64,000 bases of DNA from a virus (Duplodnaviria; Caudoviricetes): positions 1-64,000 of the IMG/VR virus record IMGVR_UViG_3300032007_000023; one strand, written 5' to 3'. The position numbers were made by a program, and so were the translations under genes. The notes beneath the pieces were generated by a model that worked only from the letters and a program-made list of their open reading frames with translations, ran no database searches and was not told the DNA's origin. Position 1 is the first letter of the stretch. Each line of letters begins with the position of its first letter. Shown one piece after another: positions 6,012-25,061 of this stretch.

Positions 6012-7508
6012 GTGAAGACCTTAAGAAACAATTTATACAAGGATATGGCTTCTGTGTTATGTTCATCAAAAGGCGAATTAAAATCCTCTCAAACAATCGT
6101 CTTATTTTCACGAGCAGTATCGGTTTATCCGTCAAAATCGATATACTGTCTCGTTGTACATAGAATATTGAGCTTTCTTGAAAAGAATGTCAATAACATT
6201 GATCTCATGGTTGAGGTTATGAAAGATGAAGGAGAAGATAACGAAATAATTGAAAGTATCTTATTCTTGAAAAATAATCCCACTATAACTACGCAAGCTG
6301 AATGTTTGAGACTCTGTAATCTGTTGGCAGATTATGTAAAGTGGGCAGGGGTATTAAAAGTAAAAGACTCTTTCATCAAAACTCTGGATATCATTGATGA
6401 TGACGATGAACCGGAGGATCTCAAATCACATGTTGATCATGTGTATAATGTTGCTCAGGAAATTGTTAAGGCATATGAGTCTGCAAATATAACAGCAGTA
6501 GCTCATACATTTGATTCTGCAGATGTGGATGCAATGAAAATTGTTGTAGCTGATGCTAAAGATGCTCGTGCTCCTGATAAGTGTATTATCACTGGTATCA
6601 GGGGTCTTAATAACCTTCTTTCTCCAGGATATCTGTCTGGATGTTTATACATCTACGCAGCTCTTCCTGGTAACTATAAATCTGGTATTCTGTTAAAGTC
6701 CCATGTAGATACGCTCAAGTATAATGAGCATATCAAGAATACTACAAATGGAAAGACACCAATATCTATGTATATCTCTATGGAGAATACTATGGCTCAA
6801 ACCATACGTAGATTATGGGGTATATTGTTCCCGACTGCAGATATGTCAATGTTCTCTGTTGATGAAATCACCGAGATGATTAACAACGAGCTTACTGCTA
6901 AGGGAATGAGATCTGTTATTCTTTATTACGGATATCGTGAAAAGTCCACTAAGGATCTTGAAACAATTATCCGTTCATATAATAATGACAACAATGAGGT
7001 TGTGGCTGTATTCCTCGATTACATCAAGCGTATTAGACCTGGTCGTACAGATTTAGCAGTAACATCTTCAGAGAAGTCAGAGCTTCATGCTATAATGAAT
7101 GAACTTAAGTCTATATGTGCAGAATTCAATATTCCGATCATCTCAGGACATCAGCTCAATAGAGAAGCAGCACGTCAGGTTGATGACGTTGTTAAGAATG
7201 GTGGTTATAACAAGACTGATCAAGCAATGGGTAGAAGTAATATATCTGTTGCATGGGAGGTTATGGAGGTTGCTGATTGGATGTGTTTAATGAATATTGA
7301 GAATAATGGCGAAACAAAATCACTTATGCTCAAAGCGGTAAAGCAACGTGATCTCGATCAGAACACAGATAATTCAATCACAGCTATCAGACACCCATTC
7401 TTATCACCTCAGTCGTTTGCTTTGAAAGATGACATCATGGAGAATGTATCTATATCTATCCCGATATACTTCGGCGTTCAGAAGTTGAATTATATGGCAT
7501 CCGTATAA
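6012..7508 (+). CDS. dnaB: DnaB-like (SF4) replicative helicase
   Basis: ALPGNYKS (H1), YISMEN (H1a), FLDYI (H2), HQLNRE (H3). Confidence 0.85.
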   Translation: MKTLRNNLYKDMASVLCSSKGELKSSQTIVLFSRAVSVYPSKSIYCLVVHRILSFLEKNVNNIDLMVEVMKDEGEDNEIIESILFLKNNPTITTQAECLRLCNLLADYVKWAGVLKVKDSFIKTLDIIDDDDEPEDLKSHVDHVYNVAQEIVKAYESANITAVAHTFDSADVDAMKIVVADAKDARAPDKCIITGIRGLNNLLSPGYLSGCLYIYAALPGNYKSGILLKSHVDTLKYNEHIKNTTNGKTPISMYISMENTMAQTIRRLWGILFPTADMSMFSVDEITEMINNELTAKGMRSVILYYGYREKSTKDLETIIRSYNNDNNEVVAVFLDYIKRIRPGRTDLAVTSSEKSELHAIMNELKSICAEFNIPIISGHQLNREAARQVDDVVKNGGYNKTDQAMGRSNISVAWEVMEVADWMCLMNIENNGETKSLMLKAVKQRDLDQNTDNSITAIRHPFLSPQSFALKDDIMENVSISIPIYFGVQKLNYMASV

Positions 7509-7520
7509 ATTATAATTATG

Positions 7521-7533
7521 GACATATATAATT
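7521..7533 (+). promoter_or_regulatory. class-1 (putative early) promoter motif
   Basis: GACATATATAATT, identical at 23085 and near-identical at 42374(-), 45626, 56062. Confidence 0.55.
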
Positions 7534-17576: not shown

Positions 17577-17609
17577 CTCCTTTCAAAAATACCCGGGCAT
17601 AAAGCCCGG
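17577..17609 (-). repeat. hairpin+U-tract+SD unit, copy 1
   Basis: CTCCTTTCAAAAATACCCGGGCATAAAGCCCGG, repeated at 17960-17993. Confidence 0.9.
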
Positions 17610-17616
17610 CCACGGA

Positions 17617-17952
17617 TTAGATAATTACGTCGTAGTCGCCTGTTGTAATCATGTCGTTCAATGCCTCGATAACTTCACGATATTCATCTTGATCTACGTC
17701 GATCTCTCTGAATTCATTAATGTTATCGTTTTCGGAACATGGTTCCCAAGACTCATCGTCGTAAACGGGTTCTTCTTTTCGGAGTTTGTTCTCCTTTGGA
17801 TAGAACACGTATAGGAGCGGATACCAACCACTCCAGTCTTGGATTTCCTCGGCTTCAAGAATGACTTCGTCATTCCTTTCTAAAATATTTATTGTTATTC
17901 TGTCTTCTGTTGGTTTTTCACCAACACCAAATGAAATTCTGTATTTTGACAT
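17617..17952 (-). CDS. small acidic hypothetical protein
   Basis: GAAAGGAG SD; 111 aa. Confidence 0.8.
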   Translation of the reverse strand: MSKYRISFGVGEKPTEDRITINILERNDEVILEAEEIQDWSGWYPLLYVFYPKENKLRKEEPVYDDESWEPCSENDNINEFREIDVDQDEYREVIEALNDMITTGDYDVII

Positions 17953-17959
17953 ATTATTT

Positions 17960-17993
17960 CTCCTTTCAAAAAATACCCGGGCATAAAGCCCGG
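17960..17993 (-). repeat. hairpin+U-tract+SD unit, copy 2
   Basis: same as 17577-17609 with one extra A. Confidence 0.9.
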
Positions 17994-18001
17994 GCTTTCG
18001 T

Positions 18002-18493
18002 TTAGTTTCTGAGTTTTCTTACTGCTGATACTACGTCTTCCTCGGCCTCTGCAAGTTCCCTGCTATATGTATAGAATGGACTCTTAGCAGCGGGTTCTAC
18101 TTCCTTTCCAATGTAGACCCCATTCTGGATTTTGAAGATAGCCGATGTTCTTGAGAATATTTTTAATGTTACTGTGACTACGTCTCCCGTGTATGATATA
18201 TGAGTATCAAGATTTCCATAGCTGCTTTTGATCATTTTCTTAAGCTCAAAAGCATACTCAGCAGCACTCAGTGAGCCTTTGGATGTTGGTGTTGTTCTTG
18301 TTGATTTAGTGTAACCCAGATTAAAATCCTTGATTACTTCATCAAGTTCCTTAGCGGCATCTTCGCGTCCCTTGCGTCTCATCAGGTCACGAACCTGGAT
18401 TATCATTTCTTTCTCTTCGGGTGTGTATGAATTTGCTGAAGCTTCTGCGGCTGCCTCAATAATTGCACCGATAAATTTTCCGAAACCACTCAT
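18002..18493 (-). CDS. hypothetical protein
   Basis: start moved to ATG 18493 (MSGFGK) after AAGGAG. Confidence 0.75.
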   Translation of the reverse strand: MSGFGKFIGAIIEAAAEASANSYTPEEKEMIIQVRDLMRRKGREDAAKELDEVIKDFNLGYTKSTRTTPTSKGSLSAAEYAFELKKMIKSSYGNLDTHISYTGDVVTVTLKIFSRTSAIFKIQNGVYIGKEVEPAAKSPFYTYSRELAEAEEDVVSAVRKLRN

Positions 18494-18540
18494 ATAGTTC
18501 TCCTTACCCTTTTCCCCATTGGGCGCGAGGTGATAATGAC

Positions 18541-18612
18541 GAGAGTTGAAAGACGTATTTCTTTCTTTTCTCATAGTAATAATATATATATGAAGAATCA
18601 ATATAATCCTTC
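18541..18612 (-). repeat. 72-bp exact direct repeat containing a promoter-like motif, copy 1
   Basis: identical to 19135-19206; minus strand reads CTTCATATATATATTATTACTATGAG. Confidence 0.95.
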
Positions 18613-18700
18613 CGATAGTCGGTAGCATAGAAAAAATACAATGTAAAAAATACTTTTCAAAGAGGGGGACTCATGCGAGCCCCCATCCTTTTATTAATTC

Positions 18701-19084
18701 TTATTCGTTGCAGATGTAATCTGTGAGTTCGAGTATTGTATGGTTTATGATGTCAGACTTTACAGCAGGTGTGTATGCCAACTTCTGACATGTTGCAAGA
18801 AGCTCGAACATGTTGGTGAAATCCGCATTGTTGTGCCAGTAATCCTGATGATCATGAATCAGATTTATCAGCCAGCGTGATACATGGCTGAAGAAGTATT
18901 CTCTGCTGTTGCCGTCTGCGGAGAAAGTGTTATAACCTGTGGTTTTTCCCTCGTTGATTCTCTTCTGAATGATGTACACATATTTTGTGTATTCGGGATC
19001 ACAACCAATGTAGCCTTTATAGTTTTCCATTTCCTTGACGCAAGCCTCGAGAGCTGCTCTCTTATTTCTGTATGTGTATGTCAT
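18701..19084 (-). CDS. hypothetical protein
   Basis: GAAGGAG SD; 127 aa. Confidence 0.8.
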   Translation of the reverse strand: MTYTYRNKRAALEACVKEMENYKGYIGCDPEYTKYVYIIQKRINEGKTTGYNTFSADGNSREYFFSHVSRWLINLIHDHQDYWHNNADFTNMFELLATCQKLAYTPAVKSDIINHTILELTDYICNE

Positions 19085-19134
19085 AATGACTCCTTCTCGT
19101 GGGTTATATCAGGTTTTCCTTCCTGTATTTTTAT

Positions 19135-19206
19135 GAGAGTTGAAAGACGTATTTCTTTCTTTTCTCATAGTAATAATATATATATGAAGAATCAATATAA
19201 TCCTTC
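19135..19206 (-). repeat. 72-bp exact direct repeat containing a promoter-like motif, copy 2
   Basis: identical to 18541-18612. Confidence 0.95.
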
Positions 19207-19241
19207 TGCAGCATAGATTTCATGGTAGCATAGAAAAAATG

Positions 19242-19263
19242 AACGGGGGACATAGCCCCCGTT
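19242..19263 (-). terminator. intrinsic terminator of the sbcC/HNH unit
   Basis: AACGGGGG..CCCCCGTT; T-tract on the minus strand. Confidence 0.7.
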
Positions 19264-19265
19264 AA

Positions 19266-19412
19266 TTATTTTTTCGATAAATCAATAGTATGAACAATGT
19301 GATCATATTGACCGGGTTGAATTGAATGAGATATCAAGAATAATTGCTCCATCTTTAATGTAGCCATTGTTTCTTGTATCATCATTAAGAATGAATCATG
19401 CATGTATGAATC
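19266..19412 (-). pseudogene. sbcC: displaced original 3' end of sbcC (48 codons)
   Basis: DSYMHDSFLMMIQETMATLKMEQLFLISHSIQPGQYDHIVHTIDLSKK* is colinear with the SbcC C-terminus DIDMCSLYLAMLYELCSTLKIEQMFLISHH..VHKLDL. Confidence 0.85.
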
Positions 19413-20463
19413 AGAAATATTGATCAGTTATATCTCGTCTATATTTTTTCTTATGTATTCTATGTATTTTTGTAAGTGATATATTAGGAATTGTGTCTCT
19501 TAATTCATTATAAACAGCTATTTGTTTAAAATTATTATGTAACAAAGATCTACAAATAGTATGTATATCAGTTTCTGTTATTCTGTTACTAAAGAATCCT
19601 TTATTAAAATATTTATCAGAAATAAAACACCAGGCCTTTTTATTTCTTATACAGTAAACGATACTTTCACTGATTCTTTTATTTAATGATGAGATCACTT
19701 GCTTTACATTTCCATTATATTTTAATAATAAAGAACATATATCATGAACATCTTTTTCTGTGATTATTGCCCTTGAATTATTTTCACCTATATGTGATGG
19801 AAATAGCTTTGTATTTATCGAATGCAATACATTTTGCTTTTGTGAAACGATTTCCAAATTTTTCCAAGTATTTCTTATCTTTATACCGTTTATATGATTT
19901 ATTATTGCATATCTATTAAAAGAATCCCAATTTAGAAATTGATACGCTACAAGTCTGTGTAAAGAGAAACGATGTCTTTCATCATATGAACCAAGAGAAA
20001 CATTCAGATATCCTCCTGATTTTGGTTGTGGTTTGATAATATTCATATATTTTTTATTTCTTACTCTACCCCATGATGATACTTCATACATTCCCGGTTT
20101 AACACCGGGATATGTACAATCTCTCCATTCTTCAATATCTTCAATCCATTCTAAATTGGATAAATCAATATCACGTGTATCACCATTGATGTGTTTGATT
20201 GTGATTGGTTTATCCTTTAATTCTATTGGAATGGGAATAAATGTTATTCCCAATAATTCATCTATTGGGAATAACATAAACAATGAATTATTGATTCTAT
20301 ATTTTTCTTTCACAATTAACATTATGAAATCATATCCATTTGATGAATGATAATCTGGTATCAAATAATCTGATTCATCACAGTCTTTATTACGAATATA
20401 ACCTTTGTTTGATATTAAATAACCATCAACAATCATTGGATGTTTTAATGGTTTCCATATCAT
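19411..20463 (-). mobile_element. free-standing NUMOD4/HNH homing endonuclease
   Basis: EEWR..YEVSSWGRVR (NUMOD4), LHRLVA, INHINGIKIRNTWKNLE; degenerate first copy at the N-terminus; very AT-rich. Confidence 0.9.
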
Positions 20464-20465
20464 AT

Positions 20466-23003
20466 TTATTTCACCTTCTTATTTAATATTTCTTGTAAGT
20501 CAAGTTTATGAACAAATATAGAAGAATCCGCATCAACATGATGCGATATAAGAAACATCTGTTCTATTTTTAACGTTGAACATAATTCATATAACATTGC
20601 TAGATATAATGAACACATATCTATGTCTAATGCTGCATCGATCTCATCAACAAGACACACATTGTATTTTGTTAATGATGATGATAAAGCCATTTCTAAT
20701 GCTAATGATAATAATGTAGCTTCCGATTGAGAACCATAACGAATATCAGATGATGTATGCGAACCACATCTGAAAGGAAGTGTAAATGAAGTTTCATCAA
20801 TCGTTGGTTCTAACAATTCTATTTCACCATCATACATGATATCAAGCAATCTGTTTGTTAATGACAAAGCATCTTCAACAGTTTCACGTATTGCTATAAC
20901 AGGTTTACCCTTGGTGGATGATGTTGCTTCTGCTATTATCTTATATCTACCATTTAATGAATCATGTTTGTCAATTTCAGCAACGGTGCTTACATACTGA
21001 TTATATGCATCTGATATTGTTTTGAGTTCATTCGTTAATACATTAGCCTTATAGGTTAACTCATTATATGTTGATGATAATGATTCTAATTCTTGTTCTG
21101 ATTCAGATAATCTCTGTAACAATACACTGATCTTACCATGACGATTATTAAGCTCATCAATATTAAGATGTTTTACCTGGGATAATAACAAACGTTTTCT
21201 ATCATTTGTATCTAATAATGATGAACATGTATCTATATCAGTATTAAGAGTATTATCTTTAATTCTTAATGATTCAATCTCTTCGTTGATCTTATTGATA
21301 GCTTCATCCATGTTATCAGTAGGAAGTAATAATTTCTTCATATTCTCAATTGTTCTTTCTATATCAGATAATTGAGAAACAAACTGATTACGTTGTTCAC
21401 TCTTTGCAGCTTCTTCCATAAGATACTTGATATATGATACATCAATACCGACACGTTTCATTTGAACATTCATCATTATATTATTCAAATTGAATATGTC
21501 TTGTAATTCTAACGGTATATCCGTATTTAGTAACCGCTTGATAGTCAACACATTCTTGTGAGCATGTTCTATCTGTTCAAGATCGTATTGAGTGAATTGA
21601 GATGAAGTGGTTGATTGATAAGATTTGAAATATGTTTCCAACATCTTGTGTGTCTTAAGATATACACAATTCGAGAAAGCACATTCTTTATCAACCCAAT
21701 CACCTTGAACACCTTCAATCATTCTTTTAATTCTTGATACTGCAGACATCTCTTTTTCTGTGTCAAGAAGAACACTTCCCTCTTGCATGAGGAACGCAGC
21801 AACATCAACATCATTACATATCATATCAGTGAACATTTTCAAATGATGTTCATTGAGACATGATAATATCTCTGTACAGATATCATTGATTGCTTGTGCT
21901 GGTTGAATCATACTCCTATAATATGAAGATGAAGCTGTTGTTGTCATTTCAACATCAATAGCATCTATCTTAGAAACGAGATCATTCTTCATATTTATCA
22001 TATTATTATAATCATCAGCAGCACGTTTACTAGCCATCATTGTACTCTCGATATTATTTTTCTTTTCATAAAGAAGATCAATATCTTTTCTTAACATTAA
22101 TCTTTCATTCTTCAATGAAGATAATCGAGCATTAAGATCTATCTGTTCTTGGACAAGGGTGTCGTACATGTTTGGATCATATGAACCCATTTCATCAACG
22201 ACATTTTTGTATGCTACCAATTGATTATTGATTGTCATGAGTTCTTGTGATGGATTCTGATTACGTATGACCGTTATTTGACCTTGAAGAGTATCCATTC
22301 TTGATTTGGTTGTATTCATCATACGCTGTGTATTGTCGGATTCTTCTTGCTTTTGTTTCATCAAAACACATAAGGTTTCATATGAACCATATGTAGATAA
22401 GATGTATTCCTTCGTGTTGTTTAATGAGGTTATCAGTTTATTGGTATAACGATAATCATCCGTAGCCATCTTATGAATCTTATCGTATATATCAATACCC
22501 ATAGCTTTGTTTAATAATGTCTTTCTTTGTGTAGTAGACATATTTCCAAAAGATGTCAGCTGAGTTCCATTTATTATGAATTGGAACACATACTTATTGA
22601 TACCGAGGATTCGTTCAATAAGGGAATTGAATATTGTGACACCACCTGATGGATTTAATTCTTCACCATTATGAATTATTGATGATGATATAGTATGACC
22701 TGTTCTGGTTGGTGTATATGTGTGAGTGATATCATATACCTCACCATCTACTTCGTATACAATATTCTTTATTCCAACTTCTTTCGGTATTATTAAAGCT
22801 AAATCAGCTCGTTCATCACCATTCAGATTTATACTGCTGAATGGATGGAGTTGTTGAATAAGTACGGTTTTACCGCAACGGTTTTGTCCATATATCTGTA
22901 TGATTGGTTTGTCGATATTCTCAAACGAGAATTCTACTTCTTTCAAACCCATAGCAGCATGAACACCGATAAAGTTTGTAAGTTTGACATAGGTTATACG
23001 CAT
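20466..23003 (-). CDS. sbcC: SbcC/Rad50-like SMC ATPase
   Basis: GQNRCGKT Walker A, long coiled coil with central CxxxxC, GSQSE signature, CLVDEIDAALD Walker B/D-loop, LISH switch. Confidence 0.9.
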   Translation of the reverse strand: MRITYVKLTNFIGVHAAMGLKEVEFSFENIDKPIIQIYGQNRCGKTVLIQQLHPFSSINLNGDERADLALIIPKEVGIKNIVYEVDGEVYDITHTYTPTRTGHTISSSIIHNGEELNPSGGVTIFNSLIERILGINKYVFQFIINGTQLTSFGNMSTTQRKTLLNKAMGIDIYDKIHKMATDDYRYTNKLITSLNNTKEYILSTYGSYETLCVLMKQKQEESDNTQRMMNTTKSRMDTLQGQITVIRNQNPSQELMTINNQLVAYKNVVDEMGSYDPNMYDTLVQEQIDLNARLSSLKNERLMLRKDIDLLYEKKNNIESTMMASKRAADDYNNMINMKNDLVSKIDAIDVEMTTTASSSYYRSMIQPAQAINDICTEILSCLNEHHLKMFTDMICNDVDVAAFLMQEGSVLLDTEKEMSAVSRIKRMIEGVQGDWVDKECAFSNCVYLKTHKMLETYFKSYQSTTSSQFTQYDLEQIEHAHKNVLTIKRLLNTDIPLELQDIFNLNNIMMNVQMKRVGIDVSYIKYLMEEAAKSEQRNQFVSQLSDIERTIENMKKLLLPTDNMDEAINKINEEIESLRIKDNTLNTDIDTCSSLLDTNDRKRLLLSQVKHLNIDELNNRHGKISVLLQRLSESEQELESLSSTYNELTYKANVLTNELKTISDAYNQYVSTVAEIDKHDSLNGRYKIIAEATSSTKGKPVIAIRETVEDALSLTNRLLDIMYDGEIELLEPTIDETSFTLPFRCGSHTSSDIRYGSQSEATLLSLALEMALSSSLTKYNVCLVDEIDAALDIDMCSLYLAMLYELCSTLKIEQMFLISHHVDADSSIFVHKLDLQEILNKKVK

Positions 23004-23160
23004 TTCTATTTTTCTCCTTTTAAAGACTTATATCTTTATTGTGTATCATGGGAATAATGTGTGTTTAAAATTTTATATTTTAAAGACATATATAATTCAG
23101 ATGGTACTATATCACGATGTGGTATCCAAAATCACAAATTAAGAAAGGAATGATTTCACA

Positions 23161-23838
23161 ATGGAAAACAATGCACAGATGTGGAAGGAAAGACGAGAGA
23201 ATTTTATGGAGACATATAAGAATGATCCCATACTTTCTAAGAAACTTCCAGAGGTTGCAGCAGGACTCATGAAAGCAGAGTTCGGTGTTAACATCTTTGA
23301 TCATTCACACATTCCGATAGTATTTACAGTTGGATGGACTGAGATACTTAAGAAACTTGGTTCTGAGCAGGCAGAAGAGTGTAAGGTTGATGTATGTGGA
23401 GCACAGCTCGAATATATGACTGAAATCTCTGAATCTGATAAGAGCACGAACATCGTTCCCCAGATGTATCATGTAAAAGCTCCTCTGTTCCAGGCACGTG
23501 AACAGACACCTACAATTGGTGCATCATATACAGACAATCTCATGTCAATGTATAATGCATGGAGAAGTGTATATGCACTTGAGGCACTCACAGGAATAGA
23601 GAATAAAGTATTTGAAATTATTCTCAATGACTATGGTATCAATCTTATGGTACCGGCTGCAATCTATCCTATTATAGGTGCTACCTACGCTGCAGGTATT
23701 CAGATTGCTCGTGAATCAAAGCAAACAGTAAACATGTATAATATCTTTGAGATTGATGTTGTCGAAGGAGATAAGGTTATCCTCACTCCTCTTGCATTCA
23801 TTAAGCAGTGGCTCAAGGATGATTCCAAGAAACTTTAA
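23161..23838 (+). CDS. hypothetical protein, first gene of the tubulin operon
   Basis: GAAAGGA SD; class-1 promoter motif at 23085-23097. Confidence 0.8.
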   Translation: MENNAQMWKERRENFMETYKNDPILSKKLPEVAAGLMKAEFGVNIFDHSHIPIVFTVGWTEILKKLGSEQAEECKVDVCGAQLEYMTEISESDKSTNIVPQMYHVKAPLFQAREQTPTIGASYTDNLMSMYNAWRSVYALEALTGIENKVFEIILNDYGINLMVPAAIYPIIGATYAAGIQIARESKQTVNMYNIFEIDVVEGDKVILTPLAFIKQWLKDDSKKL

Positions 23839-23948
23839 TAATGTATGATGACCCGCTATTGCCAAGTAAAATAAAATAATAAAATGAAGAAATTCAGAAA
23901 TCTGTCTTGGTGTTAGCGGGTTTATTCATAACTAAAGGAGGTAATCCA

Positions 23949-25061
23949 ATGAACAATCTCATTATAGGACTCGGTAATACTGGAACGAATATCGTTAAAG
24001 CAGCAGCCGGTTCTGCACTTCTTGATCAGGTAACAATGTATTCTATTGATAGTGTTACATCATCTATTGATCTTTCAACTATTGACAAGATTAAGGTGAT
24101 ACCTATTATCTCTGATGAGAAGAGTGGTTCTGGACGTAACAGAGAACGTGGTAAAGCAATGTATGAATTCCATGAGTCTCAGGGCGCTTTCGAAGAGATG
24201 TATAAGACTGCAAAGAATTCAAAATCGCCTGTATTGGTAATAACATCGTCTGCAGGTGGTACTGGTTCTGGTGCAACTGTTCCGTTATGCAAGGCTCTTA
24301 TCGAAAAGGATATTCAGGTAATTCCGATTATCGTGTGTCCTAATAAGAAAGATCCGGCTGCATTCCATCTCAATACATCTGATTTGTTTATCGAACTCGG
24401 TGAACTTGGTGTTGAAACATATGCTGTATTTGAAAATAGACGTGGTGATGCAGACTATACACCTGTCAATCAGGAAATCGTAAATCTCATCGAAGTAATC
24501 TTTGGTAAGAAATACGATAGCACAGATCTCGATTCAATCGATGATTCTGACCTTGATGTTATTCTTAACACTCCTGGTAGACTTATCGTTGTTCAGGCAG
24601 AAGCAGGTTCTATTCCAGCACTTCAGAAAGAAATTACAAGAAAGGTGTTCTCTGGATTTCAGCCTGTATGGAAACCTGAAGATGTAGGAGCAAATACTCT
24701 CATGACTGCATTTGCATTGAAGTCAATGTTTGCTGATGAAGATTTCAGAACTGTGTTTGATGGTATTCGTGAAAGAATAGATCCTTCATCTTCTGAAGAC
24801 AGTACTGTATATGATGAGTATCGTAACATCGTTAAAGATGATAACAACGGTATGGCTACAGCATCTCTTATTATCGCAGGACTTCCTCGTTCTGAAATAA
24901 AAGAGATAGAAAGCAACTACAAAGAAGCAAGTGGTCTTGGAGAAGGTATTAAGAGATCTACAAGACCTTCATTCATGAACAGAAAGAAAGCCTCTGTAAT
25001 TACTGATACTACGGTATCTGGTGATAAGAGTGAGGTACTCAACAAATTCAAATGGCACTAA
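23949..25061 (+). CDS. phuZ: tubulin/FtsZ-family GTPase (PhuZ/TubZ-like)
   Basis: IIGLGNTGTNI, GSGRNRERG, SAGGTGSG signature; ATG 23949 after AAAGGAGGT. Confidence 0.9.
   Translation: MNNLIIGLGNTGTNIVKAAAGSALLDQVTMYSIDSVTSSIDLSTIDKIKVIPIISDEKSGSGRNRERGKAMYEFHESQGAFEEMYKTAKNSKSPVLVITSSAGGTGSGATVPLCKALIEKDIQVIPIIVCPNKKDPAAFHLNTSDLFIELGELGVETYAVFENRRGDADYTPVNQEIVNLIEVIFGKKYDSTDLDSIDDSDLDVILNTPGRLIVVQAEAGSIPALQKEITRKVFSGFQPVWKPEDVGANTLMTAFALKSMFADEDFRTVFDGIRERIDPSSSEDSTVYDEYRNIVKDDNNGMATASLIIAGLPRSEIKEIESNYKEASGLGEGIKRSTRPSFMNRKKASVITDTTVSGDKSEVLNKFKWH

Follow-up and report, generated by a model that had tools for sequence, protein, structure and literature searches.

A probable mobile cassette of replacement gene end and HNH endonuclease gene inside the sbcC-like gene of an uncultured phage

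In a 64,000-nucleotide (nt) stretch of phage DNA (the window; positions 1 to 64,000 of the 165-kb IMG/VR virus record IMGVR_UViG_3300032007_000023, estimated completeness 61%), a gene for an SbcC/Rad50-like ATPase, here called sbcC, is followed on the same strand by a gene for an HNH-type endonuclease and then by DNA that encodes a second sbcC 3′ end (the remnant). The following features make up the locus, given in the direction of transcription, each with the evidence on which it was placed.

20466–23003, minus strand: SbcC-like open reading frame (ORF), 845 amino acids (aa) (ORF call)
20635–23003, minus strand: native sbcC body with Walker A (GQNRCGKT), coiled coil, signature motif and Walker B to ...DEIDA (alignment to contig L008)
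19413–20634, minus strand: inserted putative cassette (replacement 3′ end plus HNH gene), ~1,222 bp, in place of 7 nt (TTATCTG) of the empty allele (blastn and alignment to L008)
20466–20634, minus strand: replacement (type A1) sbcC 3′ end, in frame, ..ALDIDMCSLY...HKLDLQEILNKKVK and stop codon; left part of the putative mobile cassette (alignments)
20471–20477, minus strand: Shine-Dalgarno-like AAGGTGA of the HNH gene, within the last codons of the replacement C-terminus (read from the sequence)
19411–20463, minus strand: predicted free-standing I-HmuI-like HNH homing endonuclease gene, 350 aa (Pfam, phrog and PDB matches)
19266–19412, minus strand: displaced native (type B) sbcC 3′ end, D-loop Asp to native stop, 147 nt (match to L008)
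19242–19263, minus strand: native intrinsic terminator of sbcC, an 8-bp GC-rich stem and a T run directly after the remnant stop (terminator scan)

The product of the SbcC-like ORF matches phrog_77 ("SbcC-like subunit") over residues 1–824 (E 1.6e-34) and Pfam SMC_N at 28.1 bits, under the cut-off of 40. Walker A (GQNRCGKT), signature (GSQSE), Walker B/D-loop (VDEIDAALD) and H-loop (FLISHH) motifs are legible in its sequence. Based on these motifs, a long coiled coil and the family profile, the protein is predicted to be an SbcC/Rad50-type SMC-like ATPase. Two cysteines, C441 and C446 (window ~21666–21683), form a C-x4-C pair that is invariant in 39 homologs and lies in the middle of the predicted coiled coil; the pair may represent a variant form of zinc hook, a motif that in Rad50 is normally CxxC.

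A megablast search of the sbcC/HNH region against 50,697 phage records gave no match, and by tblastn the cultured relatives of the window SbcC, in AR9/PBS1-like and Staphylococcus jumbo phages, reach only 28–34% identity. The AR9 and PBS1 homologs are annotated as SbcC or double-strand-break-repair ATPase. As the phage records supplied only these distant homologs, all close comparisons below rest on metagenome and IMG/VR contigs (numbered L, with their SbcC homologs and small ORFs numbered P). Three of them carry much of the argument: L008 (ENA contig ERZ27291655, with SbcC homolog P0002), which is near-isogenic to the window; L009 (a Logan contig from SRR16020861); and L040 (a 202-kb IMG/VR contig, recovered a second time as L054). 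The 3′ flank of sbcC was surveyed at 28 loci where it was readable, and C-terminus classes were assigned for 120 SbcC homologs.

The HNH gene starts 3 nt after the sbcC stop codon (TAA-A-ATG), and GAGGT or AGGTGA motifs lie at the place equivalent to its Shine-Dalgarno-like sequence in L009, L007 and L040. Its product consists of a NUMOD4 and a truncated HNH-like module, a NUMOD4 and an HNH_3 catalytic module, and two C-terminal repeat modules. It scores above the Pfam cut-offs for NUMOD4 (45.1 bits, cut-off 23.4) and HNH_3 (31.8 bits, cut-off 24.8), matches phrog_59 (E 1.9e-37) and aligns through residues 112–216 with residues 2–101 of I-HmuI, the HNH nicking endonuclease encoded in an SPO1 intron (PDB 1u3e; E 1.3e-6). 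H190, N202 and N211 align with I-HmuI H75, N87 and N96 and, together with N189, are unvarying in six homologs of 35–94% identity. The window enzyme thus shares the NUMOD4-then-HNH_3 core and His75, Asn87 and Asn96 with I-HmuI, but is not intron-encoded, has an extra N-terminal NUMOD4/HNH-like module and other C-terminal repeats, and carries Asn for Asp74. Given the domain scores, the catalytic His and Asn residues, and the spread and presence/absence polymorphism described below, we regard it as a probable I-HmuI-like homing endonuclease.

The sbcC-linked copy is the only member of this HNH family in the window's 165-kb record. Paralogs at other loci (L011, L046–L053) were checked for a duplicated tail of the upstream gene and none has one, so that within this sample the duplicated tail is specific to the sbcC-linked copies. 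The paralog at L011:4001–5098, from the same phage as L001, lies at an unrelated locus; its N-terminal ~115 aa (NUMOD4 and truncated HNH-like module) are nearly identical to those of the window HNH, while overall identity is only ~50%, a pattern that suggests module shuffling among endonuclease paralogs. The C-terminal repeat module is present in one to three copies among HNH homologs.

Comparison with L008 resolves the insertion to within a few bases. Nucleotide identity between the two phages is 98.3% over 4.5 kb ending exactly at window position 20635 and, downstream of the insertion, 97.3% over 3.6 kb; within the sbcC body, it is 98.3% (99.5% for amino acids). L008 lacks the HNH gene, and its sbcC reads through ...DEIDAYLDSYMHDSF... 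to ...HTIDLSKNN. L008 is therefore an empty allele, with the sequence ...GATGAGATCGATGC / TTATCTG / GATTCATACATGCATG... at the site. Homology between window and empty allele ends at 20635 (...GATGAGATCGATGC) and restarts at 19412 (GATTCATACATG...), at the D-loop Asp codon. At the left junction of the window the shared sequence runs into AGCATTAGACATAGATATG..., the new C-terminus, and at the right junction ...CAATATTTCTGA, the end of the HNH gene, precedes the shared sequence, its last GA being the first two bases of GATTCATAC. A precise deletion that would turn the window allele into that of L008 was considered and rejected, as the window junction lacks the TTATCTGG bases; because such a deletion cannot yield L008, insertion is favoured as the direction of change.

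The two sbcC 3′ ends of the window have different affinities. Up to gene position 2369, the window sbcC is 95–100% identical to L008 per 100 nt and ~84% identical to L009; from position 2370 on, it is 96–97% identical to L009 and only 58% to L008. For the in-frame end as a whole, nucleotide identity is ~58% to L008 and 93–97% to L009. The remnant, in contrast, is 98.6% identical to the corresponding end of L008, with two substitutions and one indel among its 147 nt, a divergence equal to the background between these phages, and its translation is identical to the functional C-terminus of P0002 over all 47 aligned residues (tblastn E ~1e-28), a match that excludes chance as its source. As the remnant tracks L008 at background divergence and the in-frame end tracks L009, the in-frame sbcC end is imported and the remnant is the phage's own former 3′ end. 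The imported end clusters with the C-termini of P0001, P0003, P0005–9 and P0012. It is the sole C-terminus in L010 and L016, relatives without a homing endonuclease gene (HEG), and on this comparison must be functional in its own right.

The remnant adjoins and overlaps the HNH stop codon (TGA) and lies in a different frame from the HNH gene. It encodes ...DSYMHDSF...HTIDLSKK and has no internal stop before the TAA at 19268–19266; a BLASTP comparison with the in-frame C-terminus gave 17 identities in 40 positions (E 1e-8 for the single comparison). The terminator that follows is conserved in L008 and L009, and a terminator scan found nothing comparable at the boundary of sbcC and HNH gene or at that of HNH gene and remnant. 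With the sole strong terminator placed after the remnant, the sequence points to a single transcript that covers all three elements.

L009 has the same three-part layout with the same right junction as the window. The sbcC bodies of the two are only 84% identical in nucleotide sequence (90% in amino acids) and the cassettes ~93.5%, supporting the notion that replacement end and HNH gene behave as one mobile cassette. An earlier note on this DNA, made from the window alone, had described an HNH element within sbcC that brings a new C-terminus and leaves the old one as a fossil. The ORF layout is as it described, and the L008 match confirms this account: DNA homology restarts at the codon for the last Asp of DEIDAALD, where the note had placed the onset of similarity, and the remnant is open as claimed. 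Its prediction that HNH-less relatives should end in ...HTIDLSKK holds for P0010, P0011 and P0013; the ...SKNN of L008 is accounted for by a 1-nt indel. Its proposals that the new 3′ end and the HNH gene form one unit, that the insertion is recent and that splicing is not involved agree, respectively, with the shared junction in L009, with a remnant that departs from the empty allele only at background level, and with an insert that yielded no intron match and lacks the non-coding space to hold one.

The layout recurs beyond this pair. In L019/L020, a 66%-identical HNH gene is followed by a remnant, at a slightly drifted junction. L040 comes from a distant phage (SbcC ~52% and HNH 32% identical to those of the window) and again has a foreign C-terminus, an HNH gene and a remnant. 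Here the remnant adjoins the HNH stop and begins ~7 codons further upstream in sbcC, at LVDELDAY; it is 82–86% identical to the C-termini of the closest body relatives L029, L043 and L037 (bodies 67–74%), and the in-frame end resembles a clade other than that of the L040 body. By these comparisons, L040 represents at least one independent origin of the layout. The five remnants (window, L009, L019/L020 and L040) are all intact, and each resembles the functional ends of its own lineage. L007 has the HNH gene and no remnant. A search of small ORF proteins with the remnant returned four matches, of which only P0122 (L019/L020) is a true remnant; P0121 and P0124 were rejected as contig-edge fragments of full-length sbcC, and P0123 (L018) lies behind a scaffold gap and is not interpretable.

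Several metagenome contigs break or have a gap exactly at the sbcC 3′ end: L001 ends inside the HNH gene, L013 ends 72 nt after sbcC, and L018 has an N-gap near the D-loop codons. Such breaks are as expected if filled and empty alleles coexist in a sample and confuse assembly.

The last ~50 residues of the 120 SbcC homologs fall into a majority class, B (SH[SN].QPGQYDH...), and the "SHH" classes A1, A2, A3 and C. On a tree of the sbcC bodies only (FastTree with Shimodaira-Hasegawa-like supports, 81 rows, A2 clade thinned to 6 of 40, midpoint-rooted), B ends fill the deepest, outgroup clade and non-B ends are scattered, so that at least 14 changes are needed; near-identical bodies with different ends occur in the pairs window/P0002 and P0049/P0083. 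The polarity of B versus non-B ends rests on the midpoint rooting, the C-terminus of Bacillus phage Goe21 having proved too divergent as an outgroup to polarise them. An HNH gene adjoins sbcC at five of the 11 non-B loci (window, L009, L001, L007 and L040) and at none of the 17 B loci (hypergeometric p ~0.005 by our own arithmetic, for loci that are not phylogenetically independent). From this association, non-B ends look like endonuclease-associated alleles that are able to outlive the endonuclease; alternatively, the non-B lineages could be the source from which the gene end of the cassette was first taken.

Based on these results, we consider it very likely that a mobile cassette, made up of a replacement 3′ end and an HNH gene, was copied in frame into sbcC at the Walker-B/D-loop codons and displaced the native end. 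The cassette would combine a divergent, functional substitute for the last 55 sbcC codons with a free-standing I-HmuI-like HNH gene. SbcC would be completed by the imported 3′ end with no need for splicing, translation of the endonuclease from the sbcC transcript would start from the ribosome-binding site that overlaps the final replacement codons, and the original 3′ end, now downstream of the HNH stop, would remain as an untranslated relic bounded by the native terminator. In co-infecting phages that lack the HEG, the enzyme would nick or cut the ancestral type-B sequence around GATGC/TTATCTG/GATTCATAC. The carrier allele would be immune, its site being split by the insertion and its replacement end differing at ~40% of bases. 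During repair the cassette would then be copied, the sbcC body serving as homology arm on its left and the remnant, directly beside the break, on its right. The outcome would be an insertion of intron-like precision without an intron.

Several observations weigh against this reading. The counterpart of I-HmuI Asp74 is Asn189 throughout the HNH family, and the proposed cleavage site and specificity are read off the insertion junction. The window and L009 cassettes diverge by 6.5%, so that the actual donor is not among the sampled contigs. No co-conversion tract was detected on either flank: among the mismatches between window and L008, the window has the L009 state at three of six near the junction versus ~15 of 35 elsewhere in the gene. 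The native-looking flanks imply that conversion tracts would have been very short, which is consistent with homing and no proof of it. Six non-B loci (L002, L010, L014, L016, L034 and the P0012 contig) have neither HNH gene nor remnant, and non-B ends thus also spread or persist without a HEG; ordinary recombination could account for part of the mosaic of ends. The earlier note had held that HNH-less relatives should not carry the upstream C-terminus. This stood for the closest relative, L008, which has the remnant-type end, and failed for the distant L010, L016, L002 and L014, in which the upstream type works as a stand-alone allele. Its further suggestion that alternative C-termini remain usable found no support in the analysis.

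One alternative concerns the remnant and would add to the cassette reading, not replace it. The remnant might be kept by selection, be it as the right homology arm, as a reservoir for reversion or diversification of sbcC, or as a translated 45-aa peptide; we find this doubtful, though it deserves more credit than the alternatives that follow. All remnants run stop-free to the native stop in an AT-rich genome, despite linked HNH genes of 32–66% identity, and the window and L009 remnants differ at eight nucleotides (94.6% identity) and just one amino acid (98%). A role of gene fragments as recombination substrates in phage HEG islands has, moreover, been proposed by Barth et al. (bioRxiv 10.1101/2023.03.23.533998). 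However, intactness and synonymous bias are equally expected of young remnants, each inherited from a functional gene in its own homing event; indeed, the window remnant is nearer to its own empty allele (98.6%) than to the L009 remnant, and L007 does without a remnant altogether. As for translation, no ribosome-binding site is visible ahead of the internal ATG at 19403, and a 45-aa piece limited to the D-loop and H-loop would hardly function by itself.

Less probable still is that the HNH gene is a passenger or a domesticated nuclease, serving for example in interference with co-infecting relatives, and that the mosaic arose by ordinary homologous or illegitimate recombination and not by homing. 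The six HNH-less loci with non-B ends and the missing co-conversion gradient fit such a view, as does a jumbo-phage intron HNH that reportedly acts in competition between co-infecting phages (PMC11620839). Yet interference and homing are not mutually exclusive, a B-type end never stands beside an HNH gene (0 of 17), and the remnant, where present, always adjoins the HNH stop. The same layout with a 32%-identical HNH at the shifted L040 junction is, in addition, hard to explain unless the nuclease makes a recombinogenic break.

That the HNH gene lies in a self-splicing intron or similar element, with the downstream copy as the real last exon, is very improbable, even though introns are the classical location of I-HmuI-type HNH genes in phages and the downstream copy is intact. 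The upstream frame runs through a complete conserved C-terminus to its stop, the very end that serves alone in HEG-less L010 and L016, and spacers of 3 nt (sbcC to HNH) and 0 nt (HNH to remnant) leave no room for a ribozyme. An Rfam scan of 18500–23500 at E<=1 returned no group I or group II intron, just two chance sRNA matches, and Pfam found no Hint domain; with an insert that is all coding and an HNH gene that forms a separate cistron, the locus resembles neither an intron-borne HEG nor an intein. Equally improbable is an in-situ tandem duplication of the 3′ end with divergence and later HNH insertion between the copies, which would account for two colinear, homologous copies, since these are only ~58% (nt) and 43% (aa) identical in a phage that is <2% from its empty-allele relative, while the upstream copy is 93–97% identical to alleles of other lineages, so that L008 and L009 together contradict it.

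The class of mechanism is already known, previously documented mainly from mobile-ORF (mORF) gene hybrids of fungal mitochondria and also from gene-fragment remnants in phage HEG islands. The hybrids, found in Allomyces macrogynus atp6, in Glomus sp. atp6, atp9, cox2 and nad3, in Rhizopus atp9 and in Mortierella cox2, likewise consist of a gene core, a foreign in-frame C-terminus, an endonuclease ORF and a displaced native C-terminus, with no intron, and their native copy is near-identical to an element-free close relative while the inserted copy is strongly divergent (PMC3630166). With its foreign in-frame end, endonuclease and displaced native end, the last of which matches an element-free relative, the window locus appears to be a hybrid of this kind. 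It differs in that the fungal elements carry LAGLIDADG or GIY-YIG enzymes, fused in phase, in organelle genomes, whereas the window has an I-HmuI-like HNH/NUMOD4 enzyme, encoded as a separate cistron with its own Shine-Dalgarno sequence, in a double-stranded DNA jumbo phage and with an SbcC/Rad50-like target. For Allomyces, biochemical evidence that the endonuclease drives mobility of the element is reported (PMC3630166).

Free-standing HEGs of T4-like phages (Seg, Mob; "intronless homing") resemble the window cassette in lying beside a conserved gene, in being inherited with their flanks through break repair and in their presence or absence among close relatives; they sit between genes, however, and cut at a distance, so that resection must reach homology beyond the HEG (PMC2988022). 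The window cassette instead lies inside a coding sequence and carries its own gene end, the displaced end providing homology beside the presumed break. In phage HEG islands, nearby essential genes are represented by fragments, in the form of small ORFs next to the HEGs, and the limits of genetic exchange coincide with HEGs; Barth, Dunham and Seed suggested that the remnants serve as recombination substrates, working with ICP1 and other cultured phages and mainly with T5orf172 and HNH islands (bioRxiv 10.1101/2023.03.23.533998). At the window locus, by comparison, an empty allele fixes both junctions to within a few bases, there is one target (the sbcC D-loop), and the arrangement recurs independently. 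In a limited full-text literature search, we found no description of the layout of replacement end, HNH gene and remnant in phage sbcC or with an I-HmuI-like HNH.

If the cassette reading is correct, the locus shows how a free-standing homing endonuclease can settle within an essential-type coding sequence with neither intron nor intein, namely by bringing a recoded gene end; here, the empty allele is known and places the insertion to within a few bases. The same design underlies engineered "recoded rescue" homing drives. The reading supplies a specific route by which mosaic gene ends and orphan fragments of genes could arise beside HEGs in phages, and it may explain the two discordant allele classes of the SbcC-family C-terminus. 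The element may, moreover, occupy a gene needed for its own spread; T4 gp46/gp47, counterparts of the Rad50/SbcC-like ATPase, are listed as possibly involved in homing (PMC2988022). In annotation, the remnant should not be called as a gene.

As a tentative extension, which seems to us plausible though short of probable, the sbcC-linked HNH lineage may work as a gene drive of a natural "home-and-rescue" type throughout a large clade of uncultured jumbo phages. It would repeatedly overwrite the segment from Walker-B/D-loop to stop with a recoded, cleavage-immune version, would have created and would maintain the two deeply diverged classes of ends (sensitive B; immune "SHH" A1, A2, A3 and C), and the displaced end would be actively retained as a homology arm. 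Phages that have a non-B end but no HEG would, on this view, be immune and have survived earlier invasions.

Other features surround sbcC. Window positions 17583–19128 (~1.55 kb) hold three small ORFs (18701–19084, 18002–18628 and 17617–17952) and are absent from L008; L009 has only part of this segment. The first of these ORFs is flanked by two identical, directly repeated 72-nt copies of the intergenic leader (18541–18612 and 19135–19206). The arrangement suggests a second recent cassette insertion, or a duplication, just downstream of the sbcC terminator. In L016 (from ERZ27291644), whose sbcC is of the HEG-less A1 type, a different 353-aa NUMOD/HNH-like protein (6460–7521; motif YIDGNRANCALTNLRW) is encoded after the sbcC terminator; endonuclease-type genes thus seem to have a hotspot in the sbcC 3′ flank. 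Two genes from sbcC lies a tubulin-like gene with a GGTGSG motif (23907–25061, plus strand), the orthologs of which in L008, L009 and L010 have Pfam Tubulin matches; from its sequence, the product is PhuZ/TubZ-like, as is typical of some jumbo phages. Near this gene, relatives encode a protein with a dGTP_diPhyd_N domain.

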